37,087 bases of DNA. It comes from Naegleria gruberi (Eukaryota). Shown in pieces: positions 1-37,087 of the stretch. Where the stretch lies: the NCBI GenBank assembly GCA_000004985.1, contig GG739025.1. One strand, 5' to 3'. The notes below the pieces were generated by a model, which was not told the origin of the DNA, searched no databases, and saw only the letters and a program-made list of their open reading frames with translations. The position numbers were made by a program, and so were the translations under genes. The stretch's first letter is position 1; each line of letters begins with the position of its first letter.

Positions 1-384
1 TGGGCAAAGAAATGTGCCAAGTATAAGAAGGTTAAATATTGTAAGGAAAGAAAATCAGTTAAGAAATGTTGTCTCATTAAGAAGAAATTCTTCTGTGCCA
101 AACATAAGATTATCAAGTTCTGTAAGCACAAGAAGACTCTTTCTAAATGTGTCAAATATCAAAAGAAGAAGTATTGTGCCAAGACAATTGTCATTCCTCC
201 AAGATGTATCAAGAAGAAGTATTATAAGAAGTGTTTGAAACGTTCAAAGGGAAAGAAGATTTGTAAGAAATTTAAGTTAGTTGGTGGAAAGAAGAAGTGT
301 TGCAAGTCAATCAAGAAGAAGATTTGTATCAAGAGAAAGACATGTAAGAAGTCATCAAAGCCAATCATCAAACCATCTTTGTAA
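1..384 (+). CDS. Secreted lysine/cysteine-rich polycationic protein, copy A. Only the C-terminal 127 codons plus stop are present; the 5' end is cut by the window edge.
   Basis: Frame-1 ORF runs from base 1 to TAA at 382-384. Its translation (WAKKCAKYKKVKYCKERK...KPIIKPSL) is identical to the C-terminus of the minus-strand ORF at 29477-30448. The nucleotide sequences differ only at synonymous third positions (TAT37-39/TAC, TGT232-234/TGC, AAG274-276/AAA). Confidence 0.75.
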   Translation, partial: WAKKCAKYKKVKYCKERKSVKKCCLIKKKFFCAKHKIIKFCKHKKTLSKCVKYQKKKYCAKTIVIPPRCIKKKYYKKCLKRSKGKKICKKFKLVGGKKKCCKSIKKKICIKRKTCKKSSKPIIKPSL

Positions 385-414
385 ATGATTATTTTCAAAT
401 GTTTCTAATACTTT

Positions 415-420
415 AATAAA
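415..420 (+). promoter_or_regulatory. Putative polyadenylation signal AATAAA in the 3' UTR of copy A
   Basis: AATAAA lies 31 nt after the stop. The same 3' UTR segment (taaatgattattttcaaatgtttctaa..taataaagc) is conserved downstream of copy B. Confidence 0.4.
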
Positions 421-481
421 GCAAACTCTTATTGCAAAACAATCGCAAAGGACGCAAGTCAGTATTAAAAGACAAAACATC

Positions 482-553
482 CTCCCATGCCGGGAATTGA
501 ACCCGGACCTCCTGGGTGAAAGCCAGGTATCCTAGCCATTGGACTACACGGGA
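482..553 (-). tRNA. tRNA-Glu (anticodon UUC), 72 nt, no intron
   Basis: The reverse complement reads TCCCGTGTAGTCCAATGGCTAGGATACCTGGCTTTCACCCAGGAGGTCCGGGTTCAATTCCCGGCATGGGAG. It has a 7-bp acceptor stem (one G-U pair), a D arm, an anticodon stem CCTGG/CCAGG with loop CTTTCAC (anticodon TTC), and a T arm CCGGG-TTCAATT-CCCGG. A T-run follows on the minus strand (rc of 471-480 gives TGTTTTGTC), which fits a pol III terminator. Confidence 0.9.
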
Positions 554-752
554 TTTCTGACTACCATATTTCCCTTATTTTATAATAACGGATGTCTTAC
601 CTTATTAAATATATTAATTGATTATTTATGAATTTTTTACCCAAAATACTTTTTATCTAGGTGATCAATTTCAAAATGAATAAATGAACTAACTCGTCCT
701 CTCTTTTTCCAATCACTCTCTCTTACTGACTCGAAAGACGACGTACCTCACA

Positions 753-811
753 GTTCATACAGTCAAAGACTGTAGCGGGACAGTCGCCATATTCCTGGCA
801 GGCTTCCCGTC
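753..811. repeat. Conserved 59-bp structured element, copy 1. Candidate small ncRNA or repeat of unknown class; strand undetermined.
   Basis: The sequence gttcatacagtcaaagactgtagcgggaCAGTCgccatattcctggcaggcttcccgtc recurs at 28703-28761, identical except for three substitutions in the capitalised pentamer. It is predicted to form hairpin ACAGTC-AAA-GACTGT plus a second stem CGGGA..GCCA-tattcc-TGGC..TCCCG. It lies 200 bp from tRNA-Glu. Confidence 0.5.
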
Positions 812-1097
812 TAAATCATTAAGTGAAATCAAAAAATCTATTTGCTATTTTGTTTGTAGTGCATTAAGGGTAAGGATTTTTATCTAATTTAATTGTATGT
901 ATTCCCTTGTAATTACGTGCAATAATTAACATTTGTATGTTATTGCTTTCATTGTAGTTGTCTGTTGTTTGGCAATAAATTATTCTTTTTTAGTACCAAA
1001 ATATTTGGATTTCCAATAGGAAAATGAGCTCATTGTTGCTTGAATGAGAGTATCAAATTCATTGTATAATATAATTCCTAGAGCAGCAAAACTACCA

Positions 1098-4000
1098 NNN
1101 NNNNNNNNNNNNNNNNNNNNNNNNNNNNNNNNNNNNNNNNNNNNNNNNNNNNNNNNNNNNNNNNNNNNNNNNNNNNNNNNNNNNNNNNNNNNNNNNNNNN
1201 NNNNNNNNNNNNNNNNNNNNNNNNNNNNNNNNNNNNNNNNNNNNNNNNNNNNNNNNNNNNNNNNNNNNNNNNNNNNNNNNNNNNNNNNNNNNNNNNNNNN
1301 NNNNNNNNNNNNNNNNNNNNNNNNNNNNNNNNNNNNNNNNNNNNNNNNNNNNNNNNNNNNNNNNNNNNNNNNNNNNNNNNNNNNNNNNNNNNNNNNNNNN
1401 NNNNNNNNNNNNNNNNNNNNNNNNNNNNNNNNNNNNNNNNNNNNNNNNNNNNNNNNNNNNNNNNNNNNNNNNNNNNNNNNNNNNNNNNNNNNNNNNNNNN
1501 NNNNNNNNNNNNNNNNNNNNNNNNNNNNNNNNNNNNNNNNNNNNNNNNNNNNNNNNNNNNNNNNNNNNNNNNNNNNNNNNNNNNNNNNNNNNNNNNNNNN
1601 NNNNNNNNNNNNNNNNNNNNNNNNNNNNNNNNNNNNNNNNNNNNNNNNNNNNNNNNNNNNNNNNNNNNNNNNNNNNNNNNNNNNNNNNNNNNNNNNNNNN
1701 NNNNNNNNNNNNNNNNNNNNNNNNNNNNNNNNNNNNNNNNNNNNNNNNNNNNNNNNNNNNNNNNNNNNNNNNNNNNNNNNNNNNNNNNNNNNNNNNNNNN
1801 NNNNNNNNNNNNNNNNNNNNNNNNNNNNNNNNNNNNNNNNNNNNNNNNNNNNNNNNNNNNNNNNNNNNNNNNNNNNNNNNNNNNNNNNNNNNNNNNNNNN
1901 NNNNNNNNNNNNNNNNNNNNNNNNNNNNNNNNNNNNNNNNNNNNNNNNNNNNNNNNNNNNNNNNNNNNNNNNNNNNNNNNNNNNNNNNNNNNNNNNNNNN
2001 NNNNNNNNNNNNNNNNNNNNNNNNNNNNNNNNNNNNNNNNNNNNNNNNNNNNNNNNNNNNNNNNNNNNNNNNNNNNNNNNNNNNNNNNNNNNNNNNNNNN
2101 NNNNNNNNNNNNNNNNNNNNNNNNNNNNNNNNNNNNNNNNNNNNNNNNNNNNNNNNNNNNNNNNNNNNNNNNNNNNNNNNNNNNNNNNNNNNNNNNNNNN
2201 NNNNNNNNNNNNNNNNNNNNNNNNNNNNNNNNNNNNNNNNNNNNNNNNNNNNNNNNNNNNNNNNNNNNNNNNNNNNNNNNNNNNNNNNNNNNNNNNNNNN
2301 NNNNNNNNNNNNNNNNNNNNNNNNNNNNNNNNNNNNNNNNNNNNNNNNNNNNNNNNNNNNNNNNNNNNNNNNNNNNNNNNNNNNNNNNNNNNNNNNNNNN
2401 NNNNNNNNNNNNNNNNNNNNNNNNNNNNNNNNNNNNNNNNNNNNNNNNNNNNNNNNNNNNNNNNNNNNNNNNNNNNNNNNNNNNNNNNNNNNNNNNNNNN
2501 NNNNNNNNNNNNNNNNNNNNNNNNNNNNNNNNNNNNNNNNNNNNNNNNNNNNNNNNNNNNNNNNNNNNNNNNNNNNNNNNNNNNNNNNNNNNNNNNNNNN
2601 NNNNNNNNNNNNNNNNNNNNNNNNNNNNNNNNNNNNNNNNNNNNNNNNNNNNNNNNNNNNNNNNNNNNNNNNNNNNNNNNNNNNNNNNNNNNNNNNNNNN
2701 NNNNNNNNNNNNNNNNNNNNNNNNNNNNNNNNNNNNNNNNNNNNNNNNNNNNNNNNNNNNNNNNNNNNNNNNNNNNNNNNNNNNNNNNNNNNNNNNNNNN
2801 NNNNNNNNNNNNNNNNNNNNNNNNNNNNNNNNNNNNNNNNNNNNNNNNNNNNNNNNNNNNNNNNNNNNNNNNNNNNNNNNNNNNNNNNNNNNNNNNNNNN
2901 NNNNNNNNNNNNNNNNNNNNNNNNNNNNNNNNNNNNNNNNNNNNNNNNNNNNNNNNNNNNNNNNNNNNNNNNNNNNNNNNNNNNNNNNNNNNNNNNNNNN
3001 NNNNNNNNNNNNNNNNNNNNNNNNNNNNNNNNNNNNNNNNNNNNNNNNNNNNNNNNNNNNNNNNNNNNNNNNNNNNNNNNNNNNNNNNNNNNNNNNNNNN
3101 NNNNNNNNNNNNNNNNNNNNNNNNNNNNNNNNNNNNNNNNNNNNNNNNNNNNNNNNNNNNNNNNNNNNNNNNNNNNNNNNNNNNNNNNNNNNNNNNNNNN
3201 NNNNNNNNNNNNNNNNNNNNNNNNNNNNNNNNNNNNNNNNNNNNNNNNNNNNNNNNNNNNNNNNNNNNNNNNNNNNNNNNNNNNNNNNNNNNNNNNNNNN
3301 NNNNNNNNNNNNNNNNNNNNNNNNNNNNNNNNNNNNNNNNNNNNNNNNNNNNNNNNNNNNNNNNNNNNNNNNNNNNNNNNNNNNNNNNNNNNNNNNNNNN
3401 NNNNNNNNNNNNNNNNNNNNNNNNNNNNNNNNNNNNNNNNNNNNNNNNNNNNNNNNNNNNNNNNNNNNNNNNNNNNNNNNNNNNNNNNNNNNNNNNNNNN
3501 NNNNNNNNNNNNNNNNNNNNNNNNNNNNNNNNNNNNNNNNNNNNNNNNNNNNNNNNNNNNNNNNNNNNNNNNNNNNNNNNNNNNNNNNNNNNNNNNNNNN
3601 NNNNNNNNNNNNNNNNNNNNNNNNNNNNNNNNNNNNNNNNNNNNNNNNNNNNNNNNNNNNNNNNNNNNNNNNNNNNNNNNNNNNNNNNNNNNNNNNNNNN
3701 NNNNNNNNNNNNNNNNNNNNNNNNNNNNNNNNNNNNNNNNNNNNNNNNNNNNNNNNNNNNNNNNNNNNNNNNNNNNNNNNNNNNNNNNNNNNNNNNNNNN
3801 NNNNNNNNNNNNNNNNNNNNNNNNNNNNNNNNNNNNNNNNNNNNNNNNNNNNNNNNNNNNNNNNNNNNNNNNNNNNNNNNNNNNNNNNNNNNNNNNNNNN
3901 NNNNNNNNNNNNNNNNNNNNNNNNNNNNNNNNNNNNNNNNNNNNNNNNNNNNNNNNNNNNNNNNNNNNNNNNNNNNNNNNNNNNNNNNNNNNNNNNNNNN

Positions 4001-7000
4001 NNNNNNNNNNNNNNNNNNNNNNNNNNNNNNNNNNNNNNNNNNNNNNNNNNNNNNNNNNNNNNNNNNNNNNNNNNNNNNNNNNNNNNNNNNNNNNNNNNNN
4101 NNNNNNNNNNNNNNNNNNNNNNNNNNNNNNNNNNNNNNNNNNNNNNNNNNNNNNNNNNNNNNNNNNNNNNNNNNNNNNNNNNNNNNNNNNNNNNNNNNNN
4201 NNNNNNNNNNNNNNNNNNNNNNNNNNNNNNNNNNNNNNNNNNNNNNNNNNNNNNNNNNNNNNNNNNNNNNNNNNNNNNNNNNNNNNNNNNNNNNNNNNNN
4301 NNNNNNNNNNNNNNNNNNNNNNNNNNNNNNNNNNNNNNNNNNNNNNNNNNNNNNNNNNNNNNNNNNNNNNNNNNNNNNNNNNNNNNNNNNNNNNNNNNNN
4401 NNNNNNNNNNNNNNNNNNNNNNNNNNNNNNNNNNNNNNNNNNNNNNNNNNNNNNNNNNNNNNNNNNNNNNNNNNNNNNNNNNNNNNNNNNNNNNNNNNNN
4501 NNNNNNNNNNNNNNNNNNNNNNNNNNNNNNNNNNNNNNNNNNNNNNNNNNNNNNNNNNNNNNNNNNNNNNNNNNNNNNNNNNNNNNNNNNNNNNNNNNNN
4601 NNNNNNNNNNNNNNNNNNNNNNNNNNNNNNNNNNNNNNNNNNNNNNNNNNNNNNNNNNNNNNNNNNNNNNNNNNNNNNNNNNNNNNNNNNNNNNNNNNNN
4701 NNNNNNNNNNNNNNNNNNNNNNNNNNNNNNNNNNNNNNNNNNNNNNNNNNNNNNNNNNNNNNNNNNNNNNNNNNNNNNNNNNNNNNNNNNNNNNNNNNNN
4801 NNNNNNNNNNNNNNNNNNNNNNNNNNNNNNNNNNNNNNNNNNNNNNNNNNNNNNNNNNNNNNNNNNNNNNNNNNNNNNNNNNNNNNNNNNNNNNNNNNNN
4901 NNNNNNNNNNNNNNNNNNNNNNNNNNNNNNNNNNNNNNNNNNNNNNNNNNNNNNNNNNNNNNNNNNNNNNNNNNNNNNNNNNNNNNNNNNNNNNNNNNNN
5001 NNNNNNNNNNNNNNNNNNNNNNNNNNNNNNNNNNNNNNNNNNNNNNNNNNNNNNNNNNNNNNNNNNNNNNNNNNNNNNNNNNNNNNNNNNNNNNNNNNNN
5101 NNNNNNNNNNNNNNNNNNNNNNNNNNNNNNNNNNNNNNNNNNNNNNNNNNNNNNNNNNNNNNNNNNNNNNNNNNNNNNNNNNNNNNNNNNNNNNNNNNNN
5201 NNNNNNNNNNNNNNNNNNNNNNNNNNNNNNNNNNNNNNNNNNNNNNNNNNNNNNNNNNNNNNNNNNNNNNNNNNNNNNNNNNNNNNNNNNNNNNNNNNNN
5301 NNNNNNNNNNNNNNNNNNNNNNNNNNNNNNNNNNNNNNNNNNNNNNNNNNNNNNNNNNNNNNNNNNNNNNNNNNNNNNNNNNNNNNNNNNNNNNNNNNNN
5401 NNNNNNNNNNNNNNNNNNNNNNNNNNNNNNNNNNNNNNNNNNNNNNNNNNNNNNNNNNNNNNNNNNNNNNNNNNNNNNNNNNNNNNNNNNNNNNNNNNNN
5501 NNNNNNNNNNNNNNNNNNNNNNNNNNNNNNNNNNNNNNNNNNNNNNNNNNNNNNNNNNNNNNNNNNNNNNNNNNNNNNNNNNNNNNNNNNNNNNNNNNNN
5601 NNNNNNNNNNNNNNNNNNNNNNNNNNNNNNNNNNNNNNNNNNNNNNNNNNNNNNNNNNNNNNNNNNNNNNNNNNNNNNNNNNNNNNNNNNNNNNNNNNNN
5701 NNNNNNNNNNNNNNNNNNNNNNNNNNNNNNNNNNNNNNNNNNNNNNNNNNNNNNNNNNNNNNNNNNNNNNNNNNNNNNNNNNNNNNNNNNNNNNNNNNNN
5801 NNNNNNNNNNNNNNNNNNNNNNNNNNNNNNNNNNNNNNNNNNNNNNNNNNNNNNNNNNNNNNNNNNNNNNNNNNNNNNNNNNNNNNNNNNNNNNNNNNNN
5901 NNNNNNNNNNNNNNNNNNNNNNNNNNNNNNNNNNNNNNNNNNNNNNNNNNNNNNNNNNNNNNNNNNNNNNNNNNNNNNNNNNNNNNNNNNNNNNNNNNNN
6001 NNNNNNNNNNNNNNNNNNNNNNNNNNNNNNNNNNNNNNNNNNNNNNNNNNNNNNNNNNNNNNNNNNNNNNNNNNNNNNNNNNNNNNNNNNNNNNNNNNNN
6101 NNNNNNNNNNNNNNNNNNNNNNNNNNNNNNNNNNNNNNNNNNNNNNNNNNNNNNNNNNNNNNNNNNNNNNNNNNNNNNNNNNNNNNNNNNNNNNNNNNNN
6201 NNNNNNNNNNNNNNNNNNNNNNNNNNNNNNNNNNNNNNNNNNNNNNNNNNNNNNNNNNNNNNNNNNNNNNNNNNNNNNNNNNNNNNNNNNNNNNNNNNNN
6301 NNNNNNNNNNNNNNNNNNNNNNNNNNNNNNNNNNNNNNNNNNNNNNNNNNNNNNNNNNNNNNNNNNNNNNNNNNNNNNNNNNNNNNNNNNNNNNNNNNNN
6401 NNNNNNNNNNNNNNNNNNNNNNNNNNNNNNNNNNNNNNNNNNNNNNNNNNNNNNNNNNNNNNNNNNNNNNNNNNNNNNNNNNNNNNNNNNNNNNNNNNNN
6501 NNNNNNNNNNNNNNNNNNNNNNNNNNNNNNNNNNNNNNNNNNNNNNNNNNNNNNNNNNNNNNNNNNNNNNNNNNNNNNNNNNNNNNNNNNNNNNNNNNNN
6601 NNNNNNNNNNNNNNNNNNNNNNNNNNNNNNNNNNNNNNNNNNNNNNNNNNNNNNNNNNNNNNNNNNNNNNNNNNNNNNNNNNNNNNNNNNNNNNNNNNNN
6701 NNNNNNNNNNNNNNNNNNNNNNNNNNNNNNNNNNNNNNNNNNNNNNNNNNNNNNNNNNNNNNNNNNNNNNNNNNNNNNNNNNNNNNNNNNNNNNNNNNNN
6801 NNNNNNNNNNNNNNNNNNNNNNNNNNNNNNNNNNNNNNNNNNNNNNNNNNNNNNNNNNNNNNNNNNNNNNNNNNNNNNNNNNNNNNNNNNNNNNNNNNNN
6901 NNNNNNNNNNNNNNNNNNNNNNNNNNNNNNNNNNNNNNNNNNNNNNNNNNNNNNNNNNNNNNNNNNNNNNNNNNNNNNNNNNNNNNNNNNNNNNNNNNNN

Positions 7001-10000
7001 NNNNNNNNNNNNNNNNNNNNNNNNNNNNNNNNNNNNNNNNNNNNNNNNNNNNNNNNNNNNNNNNNNNNNNNNNNNNNNNNNNNNNNNNNNNNNNNNNNNN
7101 NNNNNNNNNNNNNNNNNNNNNNNNNNNNNNNNNNNNNNNNNNNNNNNNNNNNNNNNNNNNNNNNNNNNNNNNNNNNNNNNNNNNNNNNNNNNNNNNNNNN
7201 NNNNNNNNNNNNNNNNNNNNNNNNNNNNNNNNNNNNNNNNNNNNNNNNNNNNNNNNNNNNNNNNNNNNNNNNNNNNNNNNNNNNNNNNNNNNNNNNNNNN
7301 NNNNNNNNNNNNNNNNNNNNNNNNNNNNNNNNNNNNNNNNNNNNNNNNNNNNNNNNNNNNNNNNNNNNNNNNNNNNNNNNNNNNNNNNNNNNNNNNNNNN
7401 NNNNNNNNNNNNNNNNNNNNNNNNNNNNNNNNNNNNNNNNNNNNNNNNNNNNNNNNNNNNNNNNNNNNNNNNNNNNNNNNNNNNNNNNNNNNNNNNNNNN
7501 NNNNNNNNNNNNNNNNNNNNNNNNNNNNNNNNNNNNNNNNNNNNNNNNNNNNNNNNNNNNNNNNNNNNNNNNNNNNNNNNNNNNNNNNNNNNNNNNNNNN
7601 NNNNNNNNNNNNNNNNNNNNNNNNNNNNNNNNNNNNNNNNNNNNNNNNNNNNNNNNNNNNNNNNNNNNNNNNNNNNNNNNNNNNNNNNNNNNNNNNNNNN
7701 NNNNNNNNNNNNNNNNNNNNNNNNNNNNNNNNNNNNNNNNNNNNNNNNNNNNNNNNNNNNNNNNNNNNNNNNNNNNNNNNNNNNNNNNNNNNNNNNNNNN
7801 NNNNNNNNNNNNNNNNNNNNNNNNNNNNNNNNNNNNNNNNNNNNNNNNNNNNNNNNNNNNNNNNNNNNNNNNNNNNNNNNNNNNNNNNNNNNNNNNNNNN
7901 NNNNNNNNNNNNNNNNNNNNNNNNNNNNNNNNNNNNNNNNNNNNNNNNNNNNNNNNNNNNNNNNNNNNNNNNNNNNNNNNNNNNNNNNNNNNNNNNNNNN
8001 NNNNNNNNNNNNNNNNNNNNNNNNNNNNNNNNNNNNNNNNNNNNNNNNNNNNNNNNNNNNNNNNNNNNNNNNNNNNNNNNNNNNNNNNNNNNNNNNNNNN
8101 NNNNNNNNNNNNNNNNNNNNNNNNNNNNNNNNNNNNNNNNNNNNNNNNNNNNNNNNNNNNNNNNNNNNNNNNNNNNNNNNNNNNNNNNNNNNNNNNNNNN
8201 NNNNNNNNNNNNNNNNNNNNNNNNNNNNNNNNNNNNNNNNNNNNNNNNNNNNNNNNNNNNNNNNNNNNNNNNNNNNNNNNNNNNNNNNNNNNNNNNNNNN
8301 NNNNNNNNNNNNNNNNNNNNNNNNNNNNNNNNNNNNNNNNNNNNNNNNNNNNNNNNNNNNNNNNNNNNNNNNNNNNNNNNNNNNNNNNNNNNNNNNNNNN
8401 NNNNNNNNNNNNNNNNNNNNNNNNNNNNNNNNNNNNNNNNNNNNNNNNNNNNNNNNNNNNNNNNNNNNNNNNNNNNNNNNNNNNNNNNNNNNNNNNNNNN
8501 NNNNNNNNNNNNNNNNNNNNNNNNNNNNNNNNNNNNNNNNNNNNNNNNNNNNNNNNNNNNNNNNNNNNNNNNNNNNNNNNNNNNNNNNNNNNNNNNNNNN
8601 NNNNNNNNNNNNNNNNNNNNNNNNNNNNNNNNNNNNNNNNNNNNNNNNNNNNNNNNNNNNNNNNNNNNNNNNNNNNNNNNNNNNNNNNNNNNNNNNNNNN
8701 NNNNNNNNNNNNNNNNNNNNNNNNNNNNNNNNNNNNNNNNNNNNNNNNNNNNNNNNNNNNNNNNNNNNNNNNNNNNNNNNNNNNNNNNNNNNNNNNNNNN
8801 NNNNNNNNNNNNNNNNNNNNNNNNNNNNNNNNNNNNNNNNNNNNNNNNNNNNNNNNNNNNNNNNNNNNNNNNNNNNNNNNNNNNNNNNNNNNNNNNNNNN
8901 NNNNNNNNNNNNNNNNNNNNNNNNNNNNNNNNNNNNNNNNNNNNNNNNNNNNNNNNNNNNNNNNNNNNNNNNNNNNNNNNNNNNNNNNNNNNNNNNNNNN
9001 NNNNNNNNNNNNNNNNNNNNNNNNNNNNNNNNNNNNNNNNNNNNNNNNNNNNNNNNNNNNNNNNNNNNNNNNNNNNNNNNNNNNNNNNNNNNNNNNNNNN
9101 NNNNNNNNNNNNNNNNNNNNNNNNNNNNNNNNNNNNNNNNNNNNNNNNNNNNNNNNNNNNNNNNNNNNNNNNNNNNNNNNNNNNNNNNNNNNNNNNNNNN
9201 NNNNNNNNNNNNNNNNNNNNNNNNNNNNNNNNNNNNNNNNNNNNNNNNNNNNNNNNNNNNNNNNNNNNNNNNNNNNNNNNNNNNNNNNNNNNNNNNNNNN
9301 NNNNNNNNNNNNNNNNNNNNNNNNNNNNNNNNNNNNNNNNNNNNNNNNNNNNNNNNNNNNNNNNNNNNNNNNNNNNNNNNNNNNNNNNNNNNNNNNNNNN
9401 NNNNNNNNNNNNNNNNNNNNNNNNNNNNNNNNNNNNNNNNNNNNNNNNNNNNNNNNNNNNNNNNNNNNNNNNNNNNNNNNNNNNNNNNNNNNNNNNNNNN
9501 NNNNNNNNNNNNNNNNNNNNNNNNNNNNNNNNNNNNNNNNNNNNNNNNNNNNNNNNNNNNNNNNNNNNNNNNNNNNNNNNNNNNNNNNNNNNNNNNNNNN
9601 NNNNNNNNNNNNNNNNNNNNNNNNNNNNNNNNNNNNNNNNNNNNNNNNNNNNNNNNNNNNNNNNNNNNNNNNNNNNNNNNNNNNNNNNNNNNNNNNNNNN
9701 NNNNNNNNNNNNNNNNNNNNNNNNNNNNNNNNNNNNNNNNNNNNNNNNNNNNNNNNNNNNNNNNNNNNNNNNNNNNNNNNNNNNNNNNNNNNNNNNNNNN
9801 NNNNNNNNNNNNNNNNNNNNNNNNNNNNNNNNNNNNNNNNNNNNNNNNNNNNNNNNNNNNNNNNNNNNNNNNNNNNNNNNNNNNNNNNNNNNNNNNNNNN
9901 NNNNNNNNNNNNNNNNNNNNNNNNNNNNNNNNNNNNNNNNNNNNNNNNNNNNNNNNNNNNNNNNNNNNNNNNNNNNNNNNNNNNNNNNNNNNNNNNNNNN

Positions 10001-22000: not shown

Positions 22001-25000
22001 NNNNNNNNNNNNNNNNNNNNNNNNNNNNNNNNNNNNNNNNNNNNNNNNNNNNNNNNNNNNNNNNNNNNNNNNNNNNNNNNNNNNNNNNNNNNNNNNNNNN
22101 NNNNNNNNNNNNNNNNNNNNNNNNNNNNNNNNNNNNNNNNNNNNNNNNNNNNNNNNNNNNNNNNNNNNNNNNNNNNNNNNNNNNNNNNNNNNNNNNNNNN
22201 NNNNNNNNNNNNNNNNNNNNNNNNNNNNNNNNNNNNNNNNNNNNNNNNNNNNNNNNNNNNNNNNNNNNNNNNNNNNNNNNNNNNNNNNNNNNNNNNNNNN
22301 NNNNNNNNNNNNNNNNNNNNNNNNNNNNNNNNNNNNNNNNNNNNNNNNNNNNNNNNNNNNNNNNNNNNNNNNNNNNNNNNNNNNNNNNNNNNNNNNNNNN
22401 NNNNNNNNNNNNNNNNNNNNNNNNNNNNNNNNNNNNNNNNNNNNNNNNNNNNNNNNNNNNNNNNNNNNNNNNNNNNNNNNNNNNNNNNNNNNNNNNNNNN
22501 NNNNNNNNNNNNNNNNNNNNNNNNNNNNNNNNNNNNNNNNNNNNNNNNNNNNNNNNNNNNNNNNNNNNNNNNNNNNNNNNNNNNNNNNNNNNNNNNNNNN
22601 NNNNNNNNNNNNNNNNNNNNNNNNNNNNNNNNNNNNNNNNNNNNNNNNNNNNNNNNNNNNNNNNNNNNNNNNNNNNNNNNNNNNNNNNNNNNNNNNNNNN
22701 NNNNNNNNNNNNNNNNNNNNNNNNNNNNNNNNNNNNNNNNNNNNNNNNNNNNNNNNNNNNNNNNNNNNNNNNNNNNNNNNNNNNNNNNNNNNNNNNNNNN
22801 NNNNNNNNNNNNNNNNNNNNNNNNNNNNNNNNNNNNNNNNNNNNNNNNNNNNNNNNNNNNNNNNNNNNNNNNNNNNNNNNNNNNNNNNNNNNNNNNNNNN
22901 NNNNNNNNNNNNNNNNNNNNNNNNNNNNNNNNNNNNNNNNNNNNNNNNNNNNNNNNNNNNNNNNNNNNNNNNNNNNNNNNNNNNNNNNNNNNNNNNNNNN
23001 NNNNNNNNNNNNNNNNNNNNNNNNNNNNNNNNNNNNNNNNNNNNNNNNNNNNNNNNNNNNNNNNNNNNNNNNNNNNNNNNNNNNNNNNNNNNNNNNNNNN
23101 NNNNNNNNNNNNNNNNNNNNNNNNNNNNNNNNNNNNNNNNNNNNNNNNNNNNNNNNNNNNNNNNNNNNNNNNNNNNNNNNNNNNNNNNNNNNNNNNNNNN
23201 NNNNNNNNNNNNNNNNNNNNNNNNNNNNNNNNNNNNNNNNNNNNNNNNNNNNNNNNNNNNNNNNNNNNNNNNNNNNNNNNNNNNNNNNNNNNNNNNNNNN
23301 NNNNNNNNNNNNNNNNNNNNNNNNNNNNNNNNNNNNNNNNNNNNNNNNNNNNNNNNNNNNNNNNNNNNNNNNNNNNNNNNNNNNNNNNNNNNNNNNNNNN
23401 NNNNNNNNNNNNNNNNNNNNNNNNNNNNNNNNNNNNNNNNNNNNNNNNNNNNNNNNNNNNNNNNNNNNNNNNNNNNNNNNNNNNNNNNNNNNNNNNNNNN
23501 NNNNNNNNNNNNNNNNNNNNNNNNNNNNNNNNNNNNNNNNNNNNNNNNNNNNNNNNNNNNNNNNNNNNNNNNNNNNNNNNNNNNNNNNNNNNNNNNNNNN
23601 NNNNNNNNNNNNNNNNNNNNNNNNNNNNNNNNNNNNNNNNNNNNNNNNNNNNNNNNNNNNNNNNNNNNNNNNNNNNNNNNNNNNNNNNNNNNNNNNNNNN
23701 NNNNNNNNNNNNNNNNNNNNNNNNNNNNNNNNNNNNNNNNNNNNNNNNNNNNNNNNNNNNNNNNNNNNNNNNNNNNNNNNNNNNNNNNNNNNNNNNNNNN
23801 NNNNNNNNNNNNNNNNNNNNNNNNNNNNNNNNNNNNNNNNNNNNNNNNNNNNNNNNNNNNNNNNNNNNNNNNNNNNNNNNNNNNNNNNNNNNNNNNNNNN
23901 NNNNNNNNNNNNNNNNNNNNNNNNNNNNNNNNNNNNNNNNNNNNNNNNNNNNNNNNNNNNNNNNNNNNNNNNNNNNNNNNNNNNNNNNNNNNNNNNNNNN
24001 NNNNNNNNNNNNNNNNNNNNNNNNNNNNNNNNNNNNNNNNNNNNNNNNNNNNNNNNNNNNNNNNNNNNNNNNNNNNNNNNNNNNNNNNNNNNNNNNNNNN
24101 NNNNNNNNNNNNNNNNNNNNNNNNNNNNNNNNNNNNNNNNNNNNNNNNNNNNNNNNNNNNNNNNNNNNNNNNNNNNNNNNNNNNNNNNNNNNNNNNNNNN
24201 NNNNNNNNNNNNNNNNNNNNNNNNNNNNNNNNNNNNNNNNNNNNNNNNNNNNNNNNNNNNNNNNNNNNNNNNNNNNNNNNNNNNNNNNNNNNNNNNNNNN
24301 NNNNNNNNNNNNNNNNNNNNNNNNNNNNNNNNNNNNNNNNNNNNNNNNNNNNNNNNNNNNNNNNNNNNNNNNNNNNNNNNNNNNNNNNNNNNNNNNNNNN
24401 NNNNNNNNNNNNNNNNNNNNNNNNNNNNNNNNNNNNNNNNNNNNNNNNNNNNNNNNNNNNNNNNNNNNNNNNNNNNNNNNNNNNNNNNNNNNNNNNNNNN
24501 NNNNNNNNNNNNNNNNNNNNNNNNNNNNNNNNNNNNNNNNNNNNNNNNNNNNNNNNNNNNNNNNNNNNNNNNNNNNNNNNNNNNNNNNNNNNNNNNNNNN
24601 NNNNNNNNNNNNNNNNNNNNNNNNNNNNNNNNNNNNNNNNNNNNNNNNNNNNNNNNNNNNNNNNNNNNNNNNNNNNNNNNNNNNNNNNNNNNNNNNNNNN
24701 NNNNNNNNNNNNNNNNNNNNNNNNNNNNNNNNNNNNNNNNNNNNNNNNNNNNNNNNNNNNNNNNNNNNNNNNNNNNNNNNNNNNNNNNNNNNNNNNNNNN
24801 NNNNNNNNNNNNNNNNNNNNNNNNNNNNNNNNNNNNNNNNNNNNNNNNNNNNNNNNNNNNNNNNNNNNNNNNNNNNNNNNNNNNNNNNNNNNNNNNNNNN
24901 NNNNNNNNNNNNNNNNNNNNNNNNNNNNNNNNNNNNNNNNNNNNNNNNNNNNNNNNNNNNNNNNNNNNNNNNNNNNNNNNNNNNNNNNNNNNNNNNNNNN

Positions 25001-27760
25001 NNNNNNNNNNNNNNNNNNNNNNNNNNNNNNNNNNNNNNNNNNNNNNNNNNNNNNNNNNNNNNNNNNNNNNNNNNNNNNNNNNNNNNNNNNNNNNNNNNNN
25101 NNNNNNNNNNNNNNNNNNNNNNNNNNNNNNNNNNNNNNNNNNNNNNNNNNNNNNNNNNNNNNNNNNNNNNNNNNNNNNNNNNNNNNNNNNNNNNNNNNNN
25201 NNNNNNNNNNNNNNNNNNNNNNNNNNNNNNNNNNNNNNNNNNNNNNNNNNNNNNNNNNNNNNNNNNNNNNNNNNNNNNNNNNNNNNNNNNNNNNNNNNNN
25301 NNNNNNNNNNNNNNNNNNNNNNNNNNNNNNNNNNNNNNNNNNNNNNNNNNNNNNNNNNNNNNNNNNNNNNNNNNNNNNNNNNNNNNNNNNNNNNNNNNNN
25401 NNNNNNNNNNNNNNNNNNNNNNNNNNNNNNNNNNNNNNNNNNNNNNNNNNNNNNNNNNNNNNNNNNNNNNNNNNNNNNNNNNNNNNNNNNNNNNNNNNNN
25501 NNNNNNNNNNNNNNNNNNNNNNNNNNNNNNNNNNNNNNNNNNNNNNNNNNNNNNNNNNNNNNNNNNNNNNNNNNNNNNNNNNNNNNNNNNNNNNNNNNNN
25601 NNNNNNNNNNNNNNNNNNNNNNNNNNNNNNNNNNNNNNNNNNNNNNNNNNNNNNNNNNNNNNNNNNNNNNNNNNNNNNNNNNNNNNNNNNNNNNNNNNNN
25701 NNNNNNNNNNNNNNNNNNNNNNNNNNNNNNNNNNNNNNNNNNNNNNNNNNNNNNNNNNNNNNNNNNNNNNNNNNNNNNNNNNNNNNNNNNNNNNNNNNNN
25801 NNNNNNNNNNNNNNNNNNNNNNNNNNNNNNNNNNNNNNNNNNNNNNNNNNNNNNNNNNNNNNNNNNNNNNNNNNNNNNNNNNNNNNNNNNNNNNNNNNNN
25901 NNNNNNNNNNNNNNNNNNNNNNNNNNNNNNNNNNNNNNNNNNNNNNNNNNNNNNNNNNNNNNNNNNNNNNNNNNNNNNNNNNNNNNNNNNNNNNNNNNNN
26001 NNNNNNNNNNNNNNNNNNNNNNNNNNNNNNNNNNNNNNNNNNNNNNNNNNNNNNNNNNNNNNNNNNNNNNNNNNNNNNNNNNNNNNNNNNNNNNNNNNNN
26101 NNNNNNNNNNNNNNNNNNNNNNNNNNNNNNNNNNNNNNNNNNNNNNNNNNNNNNNNNNNNNNNNNNNNNNNNNNNNNNNNNNNNNNNNNNNNNNNNNNNN
26201 NNNNNNNNNNNNNNNNNNNNNNNNNNNNNNNNNNNNNNNNNNNNNNNNNNNNNNNNNNNNNNNNNNNNNNNNNNNNNNNNNNNNNNNNNNNNNNNNNNNN
26301 NNNNNNNNNNNNNNNNNNNNNNNNNNNNNNNNNNNNNNNNNNNNNNNNNNNNNNNNNNNNNNNNNNNNNNNNNNNNNNNNNNNNNNNNNNNNNNNNNNNN
26401 NNNNNNNNNNNNNNNNNNNNNNNNNNNNNNNNNNNNNNNNNNNNNNNNNNNNNNNNNNNNNNNNNNNNNNNNNNNNNNNNNNNNNNNNNNNNNNNNNNNN
26501 NNNNNNNNNNNNNNNNNNNNNNNNNNNNNNNNNNNNNNNNNNNNNNNNNNNNNNNNNNNNNNNNNNNNNNNNNNNNNNNNNNNNNNNNNNNNNNNNNNNN
26601 NNNNNNNNNNNNNNNNNNNNNNNNNNNNNNNNNNNNNNNNNNNNNNNNNNNNNNNNNNNNNNNNNNNNNNNNNNNNNNNNNNNNNNNNNNNNNNNNNNNN
26701 NNNNNNNNNNNNNNNNNNNNNNNNNNNNNNNNNNNNNNNNNNNNNNNNNNNNNNNNNNNNNNNNNNNNNNNNNNNNNNNNNNNNNNNNNNNNNNNNNNNN
26801 NNNNNNNNNNNNNNNNNNNNNNNNNNNNNNNNNNNNNNNNNNNNNNNNNNNNNNNNNNNNNNNNNNNNNNNNNNNNNNNNNNNNNNNNNNNNNNNNNNNN
26901 NNNNNNNNNNNNNNNNNNNNNNNNNNNNNNNNNNNNNNNNNNNNNNNNNNNNNNNNNNNNNNNNNNNNNNNNNNNNNNNNNNNNNNNNNNNNNNNNNNNN
27001 NNNNNNNNNNNNNNNNNNNNNNNNNNNNNNNNNNNNNNNNNNNNNNNNNNNNNNNNNNNNNNNNNNNNNNNNNNNNNNNNNNNNNNNNNNNNNNNNNNNN
27101 NNNNNNNNNNNNNNNNNNNNNNNNNNNNNNNNNNNNNNNNNNNNNNNNNNNNNNNNNNNNNNNNNNNNNNNNNNNNNNNNNNNNNNNNNNNNNNNNNNNN
27201 NNNNNNNNNNNNNNNNNNNNNNNNNNNNNNNNNNNNNNNNNNNNNNNNNNNNNNNNNNNNNNNNNNNNNNNNNNNNNNNNNNNNNNNNNNNNNNNNNNNN
27301 NNNNNNNNNNNNNNNNNNNNNNNNNNNNNNNNNNNNNNNNNNNNNNNNNNNNNNNNNNNNNNNNNNNNNNNNNNNNNNNNNNNNNNNNNNNNNNNNNNNN
27401 NNNNNNNNNNNNNNNNNNNNNNNNNNNNNNNNNNNNNNNNNNNNNNNNNNNNNNNNNNNNNNNNNNNNNNNNNNNNNNNNNNNNNNNNNNNNNNNNNNNN
27501 NNNNNNNNNNNNNNNNNNNNNNNNNNNNNNNNNNNNNNNNNNNNNNNNNNNNNNNNNNNNNNNNNNNNNNNNNNNNNNNNNNNNNNNNNNNNNNNNNNNN
27601 NNNNNNNNNNNNNNNNNNNNNNNNNNNNNNNNNNNNNNNNNNNNNNNNNNNNNNNNNNNNNNNNNNNNNNNNNNNNNNNNNNNNNNNNNNNNNNNNNNNN
27701 NNNNNNNNNNNNNNNNNNNNNNNNNNNNNNNNNNNNNNNNNNNNNNNNNNNNNNNNNNNN
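1098..27760. other. Assembly gap (26,663 N)
   Basis: Uninterrupted run of n. The 8,900-aa ORFs in the track that cross it are artefacts of translating N. Confidence 0.99.
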
Positions 27761-27842
27761 AATGACATGTTTCTATTAATAAATTTAGTGAACTAATAAT
27801 GCAAAACACATTCCAACAAATGTTAAGGAAATAAAAGGTAAT

Positions 27843-27914
27843 GGGGACCAGTGTGAATCGAACCCACGGCCTCTCGCACCCAAAGCGAGAATCATACCAC
27901 TAGACCATGGTCCC
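27843..27914 (-). tRNA. tRNA-Pro (anticodon UGG), 72 nt
   Basis: The reverse complement reads GGGACCATGGTCTAGTGGTATGATTCTCGCTTTGGGTGCGAGAGGCCGTGGGTTCGATTCACACTGGTCCCC. It has a perfect 7-bp acceptor stem, an anticodon stem CTCGC/GCGAG with loop TTTGGGT (anticodon TGG), and D-arm/anticodon-arm sequence typical of animal tRNA-Pro. The T stem GTGGG/CACAC carries one G-A mismatch. The minus-strand 3' flank reads ATTACCTTTTATTTCC, which includes a T-run terminator. Confidence 0.85.
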
Positions 27915-28054
27915 TTACACAATAAATGGAAGTATTAAAATTGCTGCCTGTTATTGTGGAGGTGGGAAACAAGAACATGAAAATATGTAATTAGTTTTTC
28001 TTAACTTTCAAAGTTTCCATATGTTAGGGGAGATTTAATCAATGTCTTTTCACG

Positions 28055-28258
28055 ATGGATCTTGTAGTTATTTATTTGGTCATTGGAATTATGTTTCTCT
28101 TGTTGTGTTTAGTATCGTATTTGAGAAATAGAATATTAATGAGTTATTTCATTAGAAGAGAAAGTGAGGATGAGAAAAATAAGTTTGAAAACACTCCTGC
28201 ATGTTGTGAGATTACAATAAGTATTACTTCTTGTGAATCAGTAATTCATCCAATTTAA
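28055..28258 (+). CDS. Small 67-aa ORF with a hydrophobic N-terminus. Very doubtful as a gene.
   Basis: ATG..TAA ORF located between tRNA-Pro and the 5S gene. Its codon usage is AT-ending like the surrounding noncoding DNA, and no recognisable domain is present. Confidence 0.1.
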   Translation: MDLVVIYLVIGIMFLLLCLVSYLRNRILMSYFIRRESEDEKNKFENTPACCEITISITSCESVIHPI

Positions 28259-28335
28259 ATGTATTAAATATTTAAGATATATGTATTCCTGATAAAATTA
28301 AGCTCTTTAATGGAAAGTTATATGAATATTCTGAG

Positions 28336-28364
28336 AATGGCTACGGCCATATCATGATGAATGC
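28336..28364 (+). pseudogene. Truncated duplicate of the 5' end of 5S rRNA (about the first 26 nt)
   Basis: aatggctacggccatatcATgatgaatgc repeats the start of the 5S gene (aatggctacggccatatcACgatgaatgc at 28400-28428), 64 bp upstream of it, then diverges into gtaaggattttgataagg. Confidence 0.6.
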
Positions 28365-28402
28365 GTAAGGATTTTGATAAGGATGGTGTTAAGATCATGA
28401 AT

Positions 28403-28522
28403 GGCTACGGCCATATCACGATGAATGCACCTCATCCCGTCCGATTTGAGAAGTTAAGCATCGTCGAGCCACATCAGTACTGAGGTTGGAGACAACTTGG
28501 GAACCTGTGGTGCTGTAGTCTT
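28403..28522 (+). rRNA. 5S ribosomal RNA gene, about 120 nt
   Basis: GGCTACGGCCATATCACGATGAATGCACCTCATCCCGTCCGATTTGAGAAGTTAAGCATCGTCGAGCCACATCAGTACTGAGGTTGGAGACAACTTGGGAACCTGTGGTGCTGTAGTCTT. It has the 5S hallmarks CCCGTCCGAT, AAGTTAAGC, GTACT..GG..GGGAA and GGTGCTGTAG, followed by a TTTT terminator. Confidence 0.9.
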
Positions 28523-28524
28523 TT
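28521..28524 (+). terminator. Pol III T-run terminator of the 5S gene
   Basis: TTTT follows the 5S 3' end GTAGTC directly. Confidence 0.6.
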
Positions 28525-28702
28525 AATCTTAAACACTATTTCAATATTTGAAGACTAAATCGAAATTTTATCGTTTATTGATCAACCACAAGTTTCTTTC
28601 TAATTAGATCAAATTTAAAGGTGATAAATAGATGGTCACGTAGCAAGCTTTTCTAAACAATAACTTACTGAACCAACAATCAATAGATTAGTTGCCTTCA
28701 CT

Positions 28703-28761
28703 GTTCATACAGTCAAAGACTGTAGCGGGATTGTTGCCATATTCCTGGCAGGCTTCCCGTC
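28703..28761. repeat. Conserved 59-bp structured element, copy 2
   Basis: gttcatacagtcaaagactgtagcgggaTTGTTgccatattcctggcaggcttcccgtc, 181 bp downstream of the 5S 3' end. See copy 1 at 753-811. Flanks are not conserved, apart from a CTTACTGA octamer 22-31 bp to the left of both copies. Confidence 0.5.
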
Positions 28762-29229
28762 CAAAATAATAATTGAAATGTGACAATAACAACCACCAAG
28801 ATTTTATATTTTCTGGTCACACTCTGAATTATTAACATTTCATAAGAAATCATAAAAATTTTATGTTTTTAGGATTAATTTAATTTATTTACATACTGTT
28901 ACAATTCAAAGAAGTGTTAAAATACTGTGAAAAATCAAAGTAGGCTCCCTTTGAATTGTTTTAGGGCAGCAACCACCATCACGTGAAGGTCCAAGTTCCC
29001 TCTCCATAATTAATTTTCCATGCTAGCTTTGAAGGATAAGTATGTACTTTTGATAGGCCATTCATGGAGGAGAAGCAAGTTTTCTTTGTGTGAGGCTTGC
29101 ATTCAATTGGGCAAGTGAAAGACTTGGTGTAAAGATGAGAAGGTTGGTACGTTTAAAATTTTGTCCGTATCAAGAAATTTACTTCACTTTCGTTTTAAGA
29201 TTTCTGGTAAAAAGATATGCAAAATGATC

Positions 29230-29301
29230 CTCCCATGCCGGGAATTGAACCCGGACCTCCTGGGTGAAAGCCAGGTATCCTAGCCATTGGACTACACGGG
29301 A
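29230..29301 (-). tRNA. tRNA-Glu (anticodon UUC), second copy
   Basis: 72/72 identical to the copy at 482-553, in the same plus-strand orientation. The flanks are unrelated. A minus-strand T-run (rc of 29215-29229 gives GATCATTTTGCATAT) follows the 3' end immediately. Confidence 0.9.
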
Positions 29302-29476
29302 ACTCATTCATATTAAAAATATAACCTTAATGAAAATAGTACCTTATTCTTATAAAATCATCTACAAATGAACTCACTTAAGGATTTCCAACATTTCTTG
29401 AAATTTGTTTGCAATAAGAGTTTGCAAGAAAGGTTCTGGCTTTATTAGGGTGTTAGAAACATTTGAAAATAATCAT

Positions 29477-30448
29477 TTACAAAGATGGTTTGATGATTGG
29501 CTTTGATGACTTCTTACATGTCTTTCTCTTGATACAAATCTTCTTCTTGATTGACTTGCAACACTTCTTCTTTCCACCAACTAATTTAAATTTCTTACAA
29601 ATCTTCTTTCCCTTTGAACGTTTCAAGCACTTCTTATAATACTTCTTCTTGATACATCTTGGAGGAATGACAATTGTCTTGGCACAATACTTCTTCTTTT
29701 GATATTTGACACATTTAGAAAGAGTCTTCTTGTGCTTACAGAACTTGATAATCTTATGTTTGGCACAGAAGAATTTCTTCTTAATGAGACAACATTTCTT
29801 AACTGATTTTCTTTCCTTACAGTATTTAACCTTCTTATACTTGGCACATTTCTTTGCCCATGAAACAATCTTACACTTTTTAACATATCTACATTTGGAA
29901 ACCTTCTTATTGTAGGAATCAACAGTGTACTTGTCGCAAACCTTCTTCTTTTCACATTTTTTGATTGGAACCTTCTTGAATTTCTTACAGACCTTCTTGT
30001 ATCCCTTCTTGAAACACTTGTTGATAATCTTGTGTTTGGCACAGTATTTCTTGTAACCCTTCTTGATGCAAATCTTCTTAGTTCCATAAGAATCACAAAC
30101 TTTCCAGTACTTCTTCTTGGCACAACCAACAATCTTGTATGCATGCAAGACACACTTCTTTGTTGGCTTGCTATACTTGTCACATTTGGAATATTTCTTA
30201 TGTTTGAGACATTTACCAGCACCGACAATGGCATATTGATCACAGACTTTCTTTTGACCAACGAGTTTGTGTTTTAAACACTTCTTAATCCACTTGTGCT
30301 TTAAGCATTTTCTCTTACAATGCTTTGGCTTATGATACTTGTCAACAACGACGACTGGAGGTTTGGCTTGATAGCTGTCACTTGCTTGAACTGAGAGGAC
30401 TGCAAGTAAAAGTAGAAGTGCAATTGAAAAGATTAGATTTGCTTTCAT
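29477..30448 (-). CDS. Secreted lysine/cysteine-rich polycationic protein, copy B. Complete, 323 aa, single exon.
   Basis: Probable start ATG at 30448 (rc of cat 30446-30448). The ORF in the track begins 10 codons earlier at a TTG. The N-terminus MKANLIFSIALLLLLAVLSVQA|SDSYQ is a classical signal peptide. The mature region is about 35% Lys with about 34 Cys spaced every 6-11 residues, and motifs such as CLKHK, CAKHKII and KKYC recur. Stop TAA is at 29477-29479. The 3' UTR is conserved with copy A and includes AATAAA. A TTTAAAT-like TATA element lies about 55 bp upstream of the ATG. Confidence 0.8.
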   Translation of the reverse strand: MKANLIFSIALLLLLAVLSVQASDSYQAKPPVVVVDKYHKPKHCKRKCLKHKWIKKCLKHKLVGQKKVCDQYAIVGAGKCLKHKKYSKCDKYSKPTKKCVLHAYKIVGCAKKKYWKVCDSYGTKKICIKKGYKKYCAKHKIINKCFKKGYKKVCKKFKKVPIKKCEKKKVCDKYTVDSYNKKVSKCRYVKKCKIVSWAKKCAKYKKVKYCKERKSVKKCCLIKKKFFCAKHKIIKFCKHKKTLSKCVKYQKKKYCAKTIVIPPRCIKKKYYKKCLKRSKGKKICKKFKLVGGKKKCCKSIKKKICIKRKTCKKSSKPIIKPSL

Positions 30449-30753
30449 TTTTTGTTTTTGTTGGATGGGATAGTTCAATCCATGGTGCTAATTTAAACCA
30501 TTTCGAATAGTTTTTCATTTGGAACAAGCTCAAAAAAGTTGGATGTAAGGTTCCAAATTTGGATAGAAAACTGATTTCCCTAACTAAACTCAATTTACTA
30601 TTCGAATATCAACTCATCTTTCCAATACTATTCTCAATCTCAAAGAACTGGTTCTTGCATGATTTACGATCTTTGAAAAGTTAGTGATATGATTGTTAAT
30701 GTAAAAGTTGGTTTTATTACAATTACATTATACAACATCGAAAGCCAATAGTC

Positions 30754-33700: not shown

Positions 33701-34202
33701 NNNNNNNNNNNNNNNNNNNNNNNNNNNNNNNNNNNNNNNNNNNNNNNNNNNNNNNNNNNNNNNNNNNNNNNNNNNNNNNNNNNNNNNNNNNNNNNNNNNN
33801 NNNNNNNNNNNNNNNNNNNNNNNNNNNNNNNNNNNNNNNNNNNNNNNNNNNNNNNNNNNNNNNNNNNNNNNNNNNNNNNNNNNNNNNNNNNNNNNNNNNN
33901 NNNNNNNNNNNNNNNNNNNNNNNNNNNNNNNNNNNNNNNNNNNNNNNNNNNNNNNNNNNNNNNNNNNNNNNNNNNNNNNNNNNNNNNNNNNNNNNNNNNN
34001 NNNNNNNNNNNNNNNNNNNNNNNNNNNNNNNNNNNNNNNNNNNNNNNNNNNNNNNNNNNNNNNNNNNNNNNNNNNNNNNNNNNNNNNNNNNNNNNNNNNN
34101 NNNNNNNNNNNNNNNNNNNNNNNNNNNNNNNNNNNNNNNNNNNNNNNNNNNNNNNNNNNNNNNNNNNNNNNNNNNNNNNNNNNNNNNNNNNNNNNNNNNN
34201 NN
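30754..34202. other. Assembly gap (3,449 N)
   Basis: Run of n. It hides the 3' part of the NTPase-like gene. Confidence 0.99.
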
Positions 34203-36209: not shown

Positions 36210-36381
36210 AATCCTAAGCTTTTTTGTTCTATAAAGATGAAAAGGTAAAAAGGCATGGGTGGAGTTACGCCACCAACACTTCAGAGAAATGAGCTGATCG
36301 TGGTGTTTGAATTACACTACATGCCTCATCTACATTTCAATTTTACACCTCTCTTATCTTGAATTAATTTCCAATATTCAC

Positions 36382-36391
36382 TTTATTATGG
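36382..36391 (-). promoter_or_regulatory. Putative poly(A) signal (AATAAA on the minus strand) for the 36444-37087 gene
   Basis: rc of ctttattatg gives cataataaag, about 55 nt downstream of the TAA at 36444-36446. Confidence 0.35.
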
Positions 36392-36443
36392 TTTTCTATT
36401 TTTGTCAACTGGTGAAATGGAGGTTTCAAACACTGAAGCTCAC

Positions 36444-37087
36444 TTAAATTTTCTTTGCAACAAAGAGTGCCCAATCAGCTCTTGGTTTAAGAGTCTTTCC
36501 ATCTTCTAATAGCTCTGTAGACATATGTCCAGCAAACATTTCAGTGTCATAAATTGTTCCGTTATCATCGACAACAATTGGAACACTGACATACCCTCTT
36601 GGAATAACATCTTGATCAATAATAGGCCATTCCATTGTGGTTGTTTCCCCCCAAATATTCACAGATTTTTGATCTCCCACCCAATGACCTTTATCTGAGA
36701 ATACGCAAAATGAAGTTATCCAACCAGACAAATAGGAAGGACCTGATCCACCACCACAATGATGGGCAACTCTATTCCACCATTCCTTATCAGGATTTCC
36801 TTTAATAGATTCCACAAATTTGTCCAAAACTGGGAATAATAGTTTGGACCATTTTTTCATACAGTTTTCCTTTGTATCAAATTCCAATAATCTATTTGCT
36901 CTTTCTCTAATTGAAACCCAATCCTCAACTTCGCCCAATAATGTTACATTTGGTAAATTGCAACACAAACTAAACATGTAATCAAAATAATTTTTCATAG
37001 CAGCCATTAATACAACTGCACCAATCATTCGATCTGTTTCGGTAGTTGTTGTAAAATCTGGCATTATCCATTCTCTTACACTTGGAT
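36444..37087 (-). CDS. Hypothetical conserved protein, C-terminal 213 codons. The 5' end lies outside the window.
   Basis: The minus-strand ORF stays open to the window edge: the in-frame codons upstream of the Met at 37064 read PSVREWI with no stop. The translation has a balanced composition with motifs such as [21 protein letters not shown] and no low-complexity stretch. It vaguely recalls DUF4419-type proteins, but that is from memory and unverified. Stop TAA is at 36444-36446. Confidence 0.55.

Follow-up and report, generated by a model that had tools for sequence, protein, structure and literature searches.

Are two nearly identical genes that face in opposite directions on one draft scaffold the arms of a large palindrome, two alleles joined by mistake, or something more ordinary? 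The question is raised by a 37,087-bp stretch of Naegleria gruberi NEG-M DNA (assembly GCA_000004985.1, contig GG739025.1; hereafter the window), in which two copies of a gene for a lysine- and cysteine-rich, apparently secreted protein occur on opposite strands. We call them copy A, which is partial, and copy B, which is complete. A preliminary description of the locus had proposed a large inverted duplication or palindrome, shaped by recent duplication or gene conversion under purifying selection, with two alleles of one locus as the alternative. On balance we consider it probable that copies A and B are ordinary young paralogs under purifying selection, that their layout derives from scaffolding only, and that their product would act as an extracellular polycation.

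Two near-identical coding sequences

The gene itself is real, protein-coding and present in two very similar copies, as had been claimed. Global alignment of positions 1-480 with the reverse complement of 29381-29860 joined the coding parts without a gap (1-384 on the plus strand against 29860-29477 on the minus strand), with three differences in 384 nucleotides, or 99.2% identity. These are T/C at position 39 of copy A (TAT/TAC), T/C at 234 (TGT/TGC) and G/A at 276 (AAG/AAA). All three lie in third codon positions and are synonymous, so that the 127 shared C-terminal residues are the same in both copies, as is the stop codon; on both counts the alignment bears out the preliminary description. 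A repeat search of the window recovered the same pair as inverted arms, 99% complementary between 1-422 and 29439-29860. With 67-98 synonymous sites among the 381 positions, the neutral chance that three of three differences are synonymous is 0.006-0.017. The synonymous divergence between the copies is approximately 0.03-0.045, and the number of nonsynonymous differences is zero.

The 3' untranslated region (UTR) is less uniform. Its first ~50 nt had been described as conserved, and homology does extend over this length, but it is not clean: the 24 nt following the stop are identical, three substitutions follow (33 of 36 positions identical up to the AATAAA signal), and past the signal a 15-nt insertion in copy B is succeeded by about 22 further alignable bases before homology ends near position 445-448 on the side of copy A and 29398 on that of copy B. 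Silent sites and the UTR have consequently diverged further between the copies than replacement sites, a pattern that fits the recent duplication and purifying selection which had been suggested for them.

A third copy and possible gene conversion

At least one further copy exists in the same genome. The protein EFC36128.1 / XP_002668872.1 (NAEGRDRAFT_76199; 443 residues), encoded on another N. gruberi scaffold of 39,839 bp, ends in 127 residues that are 96.9% identical to those of copy A. It thus shares species and C-terminus with copy A, but differs from copy B in that the gene model joins on N-terminal SAM and PB1 domains and has no signal peptide; the 300 N-terminal residues that carry these domains have no counterpart in the window. 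Since cytosolic SAM/PB1 sequence is here connected to a cysteine-rich tail of secretory type that lacks a signal peptide, the model looks like a fusion, and EFC36128 probably represents an annotation artefact in which a SAM/PB1 gene has been joined to a third, 3'-partial copy (the last 134 residues). Copy B, for its part, has no NEG-M gene model, as its exact protein has no match in a collection of 15 billion proteins; the best N. gruberi match spans only 48% of the query.

A multi-copy gene whose third copy is 97% identical invites explanation by gene conversion, in which older duplicates would be kept nearly identical by continuing exchange over a tract bounded by the transcription unit. Homology is lost, from a level of 99% identity, over the ~60 nt that follow the stop, which would suit such a tract, although the same sharp edge could equally mark a duplication breakpoint. 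More telling is the distribution of the differences. UTR divergence (3/38, plus indels) and synonymous divergence (3-4.5%) are similar while nonsynonymous divergence is zero, which points to selection on the protein rather than uniform homogenisation. Because UTR and synonymous sites have diverged alike and replacement sites not at all, the pattern can be explained without gene conversion as the chief cause of homogeneity; conversion is possible, but we regard it as a rather unlikely account of the pair.

Layout of the scaffold

The window is one entire scaffold of the Sanger assembly of NEG-M. Only 6,975 of its bases are sequenced, in three segments, and the remaining 30,112 (81%) are N; GC content is ~33% (Table 1). 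Since the window and the scaffold coincide, copy A is truncated by the end of the scaffold and not by the choice of window. The scaffold sets the two copies tail to tail with 29,016 nt between them; 92% of this stretch is N, in the gap of 26.7 kb that the preliminary description had correctly placed there. With so little of the scaffold sequenced, the inverted orientation and the 29-kb spacing rest solely on scaffolding links.

Flanking sequence: palindrome, alleles or separate loci

Sequenced flanks are available on the inner (3') side of both genes, the only side present for copy A. Each copy is followed by a transfer RNA (tRNA) gene, tRNA-Glu(UUC), and each neighbourhood also contains a short element that we refer to as element X. 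The two tRNA-Glu genes form a direct repeat, 100% identical over 75 nt, and the sequences immediately adjoining them are unrelated. Element X is likewise directly repeated; around its conserved core a weaker similarity of 67% extends over 224 nt (616-829 against 28558-28779). It lies, in segment A, on the opposite side of the tRNA-Glu compared with segment B. Sensitive blastn searches of the flanks returned no shared sequence besides these two elements, and neither orientation of segment A brings more than one element into collinearity with segment B.

These observations bear directly on the palindrome. Taken at face value, the scaffold layout favours it, both neighbourhoods hold the tRNA-Glu(UUC) and element X, and the scaffold does not reach the 5' side of copy A, where arms could extend outward. 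The copies could in this way be the inner ends of a true large palindrome whose 3' flanks were later rearranged. However, inverted collinear homology beyond the gene is absent on the sole examinable side, where it ceases ~60 nt past the stop; the elements common to the flanks are direct rather than inverted repeats, in different order; and the sequence between the copies is mostly N. The finding that no more than one element is collinear in either orientation likewise weighs against a long palindrome, at least as far as the inner 3' side is concerned. The large inverted duplication originally envisaged is therefore not upheld, and we judge a palindrome of the outward-reaching kind to be improbable.

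The same lack of collinearity, in either orientation, speaks against the alternative that two alleles of one locus were scaffolded together. Element X adds to this, as its copies differ by 11% whereas the coding sequences differ by 0.8%; the allelic alternative fails on both grounds. We also considered whether segments A and B might overlap at a single shared tRNA-Glu, forming a convergent gene-tRNA-gene unit, and rejected this arrangement, since the tRNAs are bordered on either side by unrelated sequence.

A broader form of artefact deserves more consideration. Segment A might be unlinked to segment B altogether, whether as an alternative haplotype, a dispersed paralog drawn in by a spurious mate-pair or a chimeric clone, in which case the inverted layout would be unreal. 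Segment A is a contig of 1,097 bp at the extreme end of a scaffold that consists largely of N. Read pairs anchored in a gene with at least three near-identical copies are ambiguous. The NEG-M assembly is moreover fragmented, with 1,977 contigs in 784 scaffolds (PMC6125883), and Naegleria has been characterised as a heterozygous diploid (PMC9928731). Set against these circumstances, nothing in the sequence itself gives positive evidence of a mis-join, and the one-locus version of the artefact founders on the flanks and element X as described above. We hold an artefact of this kind to be plausible, though unlikely.

The proximity of tRNA genes raises two further possibilities. Processed, mRNA-derived retrocopies inserted beside tRNA genes would account for a homology block that ends just downstream of the polyadenylation (poly(A)) signal, for the absence of introns from copy B, a gene for which no parent with introns is known, and for the fact that both homology blocks end 33-95 nt short of a tRNA-Glu gene, in either orientation. 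Yet no poly(A) tract marks the boundaries of homology (there is no run of A at 445-480 beside copy A or at 29398-29360 beside copy B), the two copies lie on opposite sides of their tRNAs, one downstream and one upstream, and the sequenced parts contain no retroelement sequence; retrocopies are accordingly a most improbable origin. A related proposal is that the gene was copied to sites beside tRNA genes as a transcript-sized unit, through tRNA-targeted retroposition or recombination at genes transcribed by RNA polymerase III (pol III). Copying of this kind would explain the end of homology past the poly(A) signal, the adjacency of tRNA-Glu genes in opposite relative orientations, and the third 3' fragment within the model of another gene. 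We know of no description of cellular genes mobilised to tRNA loci in Heterolobosea, and we give this proposal very little credence.

We therefore return to young paralogy as the reading that we favour. The intronless gene would exist in at least three near-identical paralogous copies, two of them on this scaffold. The duplicated unit, roughly the transcription unit, would have comprised the gene body together with ~60 nt of 3' UTR and would have stopped shortly after the poly(A) signal. After the copies separated, purifying selection would have held the protein constant while the UTR drifted. Since the copies adjoin different tRNA-Glu(UUC) genes in a pol III-rich region, they are best regarded as separate loci. 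In their 99% identity within a gene-sized block and their synonymous-biased differences, copies A and B resemble the young dispersed or inverted paralog pairs of other draft eukaryotic assemblies; they differ from ordinary pairs in that both adjoin tRNA-Glu genes and that their layout is known from scaffolding only.

A family of cationic, cysteine-periodic proteins

The protein encoded by copy B opens with a signal-peptide-like stretch of ~23 residues, MKANLIFSIALLLLLAVLSVQA, recognised by eye and coinciding with a helix at residues 2-21 of a model from AlphaFold2; a hydrophobic N-terminus of this type is conserved across homologs. The 300 residues of the mature protein include 35.7% lysine, 32 cysteines, 20 tyrosines and only 9 acidic residues, giving a net charge of approximately +104 and an isoelectric point of 10.1. 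Spacings between successive cysteines fall between 8 and 11 residues in 22 of 31 cases, with a mode of 9, and nine is also the modal spacing in 10 of 10 aligned family members. The family unit, ~9 residues long and present about 30 times per protein, can be written C-[hydrophobic]-K-[K/H/Y]-K-x-x-K-[K/Y/V], and the consensus in copy B is C-[A/L/V/I]-K-[K/H/Y]-K-x-x-K-[K/Y/V]. As no tandem repeats were found in the gene at the nucleotide level, the nine-residue periodicity appears to be old rather than the product of recent expansion.

Relatives are few. Among 5.8 billion proteins, phmmer found three, two of them from N. gruberi (EFC36128 and EFC44692), with E-values from 3e-83 to 2.5e-56. When a profile was searched against 1.84 billion cluster representatives, 16 matched; every named one belongs to Naegleria, and the remainder are environmental fragments and two low-complexity false positives. 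The named Naegleria members are N. gruberi EFC44692.1 (NAEGRDRAFT_67458), a full-length paralog with 44-49% identity; N. gruberi EFC45859.1 (NAEGRDRAFT_66117), reached through a cluster representative (P0013) at E = 1.8e-09; and, by profile search, N. fowleri KAF0976735.1 (FDP41_004030) and N. lovaniensis KAG2377328.1 (C9374_009239). Directly matched members had profile E-values of 1e-145 to 1e-19. All four are annotated merely as predicted or hypothetical proteins. They share with copy B a signal peptide followed by ~30-40 cysteines, mostly nine residues apart, and basic, tyrosine-containing units. They differ from it in sequence (33-49% identity) and in lysine content, which is 18-25% as against 33% in copy B; the longer members have additional D-x-Y-x-P-type motifs.

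Among the sequences searched, the family has been seen only in Naegleria and in environmental material. No member was found in Acrasis kona, although that species is represented in the first database searched, where its DUF4419 proteins were matched. The family alignment was also used to scan metagenome contigs from JGI and viral contigs from IMG/VR, and no relative was confirmed in either. An apparently degenerate homolog does occur in the ENA assembly ERZ2098899, at 3397-3811 of NODE_170 (L001), as an open reading frame (ORF) of 124 residues with 54% identity over 70 residues; this is an environmental, Naegleria-like contig on which the homolog adjoins G-alpha and SRF-type genes. Two further metagenome loci (L002 and L003) contain an EFC45859-type relative, and tRNA genes are absent from both L001 and L002.

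Comparison with described domains and folds was uniformly negative. No Pfam family matched copy B, and none of 10 members had a Pfam match below E = 0.08; a profile search of the PDB gave no match at E ≤ 1. The AlphaFold2 model, built from a 10-sequence alignment, is of low confidence, with a mean pLDDT (predicted local distance difference test) of 60.8 and a pTM (predicted template modelling score) of 0.25. It shows long two-stranded beta-hairpins, with a few blocks above a pLDDT of 90. When compared with the PDB in Foldseek it found no significant match (best E = 0.62); long-hairpin pore toxins appeared among the non-significant hits (E ≥ 0.6) and were not read as homology.

Putative function

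Composition and periodicity nevertheless permit a cautious proposal. Following cleavage of the signal peptide, the mature protein is predicted to fold into beta-hairpin ribbons stapled by ~16 disulfides, and once secreted it may serve as an extracellular polycation that binds or cross-links anionic polymers. Our first choice, offered tentatively and as a possibility that falls short of an even chance, is a cross-linked component of the cyst wall or surface matrix, which we favour as it fits the tyrosine content and the D-x-Y-x-P motifs of the longer members. A polycation that binds bacteria or acts as an antimicrobial is our second, distinctly less probable choice.

Cysteine-periodic extracellular repeat proteins are familiar from other organisms, for example EcmA/EcmB and the spore-coat proteins of Dictyostelium and the disulfide-ladder antifreeze beta-helix of Tenebrio. 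Like the Naegleria family, these are secreted and built of short tandem units that each contribute cysteine to a regular disulfide pattern, and those of Dictyostelium, an amoeba, are constituents of its wall or matrix. Their units, however, are 24 or 12 residues long with other cysteine patterns, none is polycationic, and no sequence or fold similarity to the Naegleria family was detectable by Pfam, PDB profile or Foldseek searches. A literature search returned no mention of the locus tags of the family and nothing relevant for lysine-rich and cysteine-rich proteins of Naegleria; papers on the cyst wall and encystment contained nothing on the family, and the proteomics supplements of PMC9035749 listed no member.

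Several considerations weigh against the reading of copies A and B as young, selected paralogs encoding an extracellular polycation. Copy A lies in a contig of 1.1 kb at the end of the scaffold, possibly assembled from one or two reads, with the 5' half of the gene missing; its clone may have been chimeric or its contig misplaced. The estimate of the ratio of nonsynonymous to synonymous change is weak, depending as it does on three substitutions, and the third copy, EFC36128, carries four amino-acid replacements. That both copies have a tRNA-Glu(UUC) less than 200 nt away is odd for fully independent loci and hints that the history they share is more complex. As for function, the proposal draws on composition, periodicity and a model of low confidence, and the literature search found no expression, localisation or literature evidence for the family.

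The consequences of these findings lie largely in curation. NEG-M possesses an intact gene for a secreted protein of 323 residues, copy B, which lacks a gene model; at least three near-identical copies of the 3' half of this gene are present in the genome; and the EFC36128 model probably joins an unrelated SAM/PB1 gene to one such fragment. The inverted arrangement is not trustworthy from this scaffold and, if genuine, would still be unremarkable. What modest biological interest there is belongs to the protein family rather than to the duplication. Its members are secreted, extremely cationic and carry cysteines at nine-residue intervals. Neither a relative nor a function has been described for them, and one occurs in the pathogen N. 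fowleri. Should the family prove to be a component of the cyst wall, of adhesion or of antibacterial defence, it would offer a lineage-specific marker or target.

Other features of the scaffold

Table 1. Segments, gaps and features of the 37,087-bp window, in order of position.
Feature	Position	Strand	Remarks
Segment A	1-1097		contig of ~1.1 kb, at scaffold end
Copy A, Lys/Cys-rich gene	1-384	+	final 127 codons and stop; 5' part lost at scaffold end
Copy A 3' UTR, homologous to B	385-448	+	AATAAA conserved (415-420); end of homology
tRNA-Glu(UUC)	482-553	-	ARAGORN, Rfam; 97 nt past copy A stop, antisense to copy A
Element X, copy 1	748-829	+	82-nt conserved core, two hairpins; weaker similarity starts at 616
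First gap	1098-27760		26,663 N; separates copies A and B
Segment B	27761-30753		contig of ~3.0 kb
tRNA-Pro(UGG)	27843-27914	-	in pol III cluster
Duplicate of 5S 5' end	28335-28364		30 nt; 64 nt upstream of 5S rRNA
5S rRNA	28403-28521	+	105 bits
Element X, copy 2	28698-28779	+	direct repeat of 748-829, core 89% identical
tRNA-Glu(UUC)	29229-29302	-	ARAGORN, Rfam; 174 nt past copy B stop, same strand as copy B
Copy B 3' UTR, homologous to A	29398-29476	-	15-nt insertion relative to copy A
Copy B, Lys/Cys-rich gene	29477-30448	-	complete intronless ORF, 323 residues from first ATG
Second gap	30754-34202		3,449 N
Segment C	34203-37087		contig of ~2.9 kb
ORF	34203-35123	-	>306 residues; no Pfam domain; runs into 3.4-kb gap
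ORF	35184-36209	-	341 residues; no Pfam domain
Partial DUF4419 gene	36444-37064	-	Pfam E = 9e-69; 100% identical, full length, to NAEGRDRAFT_76553; truncated by scaffold end

The region around the two copies is rich in pol III genes: ~4 kb of sequence includes a tRNA-Pro, a 5S ribosomal RNA (rRNA) and the two tRNA-Glu genes. In segment B, tRNA-Pro(UGG), 5S rRNA and tRNA-Glu(UUC) form a dense cluster within ~1.5 kb (27843-29302), in which the 5' end of the 5S gene is partially duplicated. Element X folds, on the plus strand, into two adjacent hairpins (z = -4.5 and -3.9). An Rfam E-value scan returned nothing for it, and its exact pattern had no match among JGI metagenome contigs. It may be a piece of a repeat or a small RNA gene that has not been described before.

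Segment C adds three reading frames on the minus strand. For the ORF of 341 residues, the databases searched contain no gene model from N. gruberi; its sole relative is an ENA metagenome protein (P0004) with 96% identity. Beyond it lies the partial DUF4419 gene. A DUF4419 paralog with 70% identity (P0022) and the Lys/Cys-rich paralog EFC44692 are both encoded on one 424,055-bp N. gruberi scaffold, and an older, linked duplication of neighbouring DUF4419 and Lys/Cys-rich genes is faintly hinted at.

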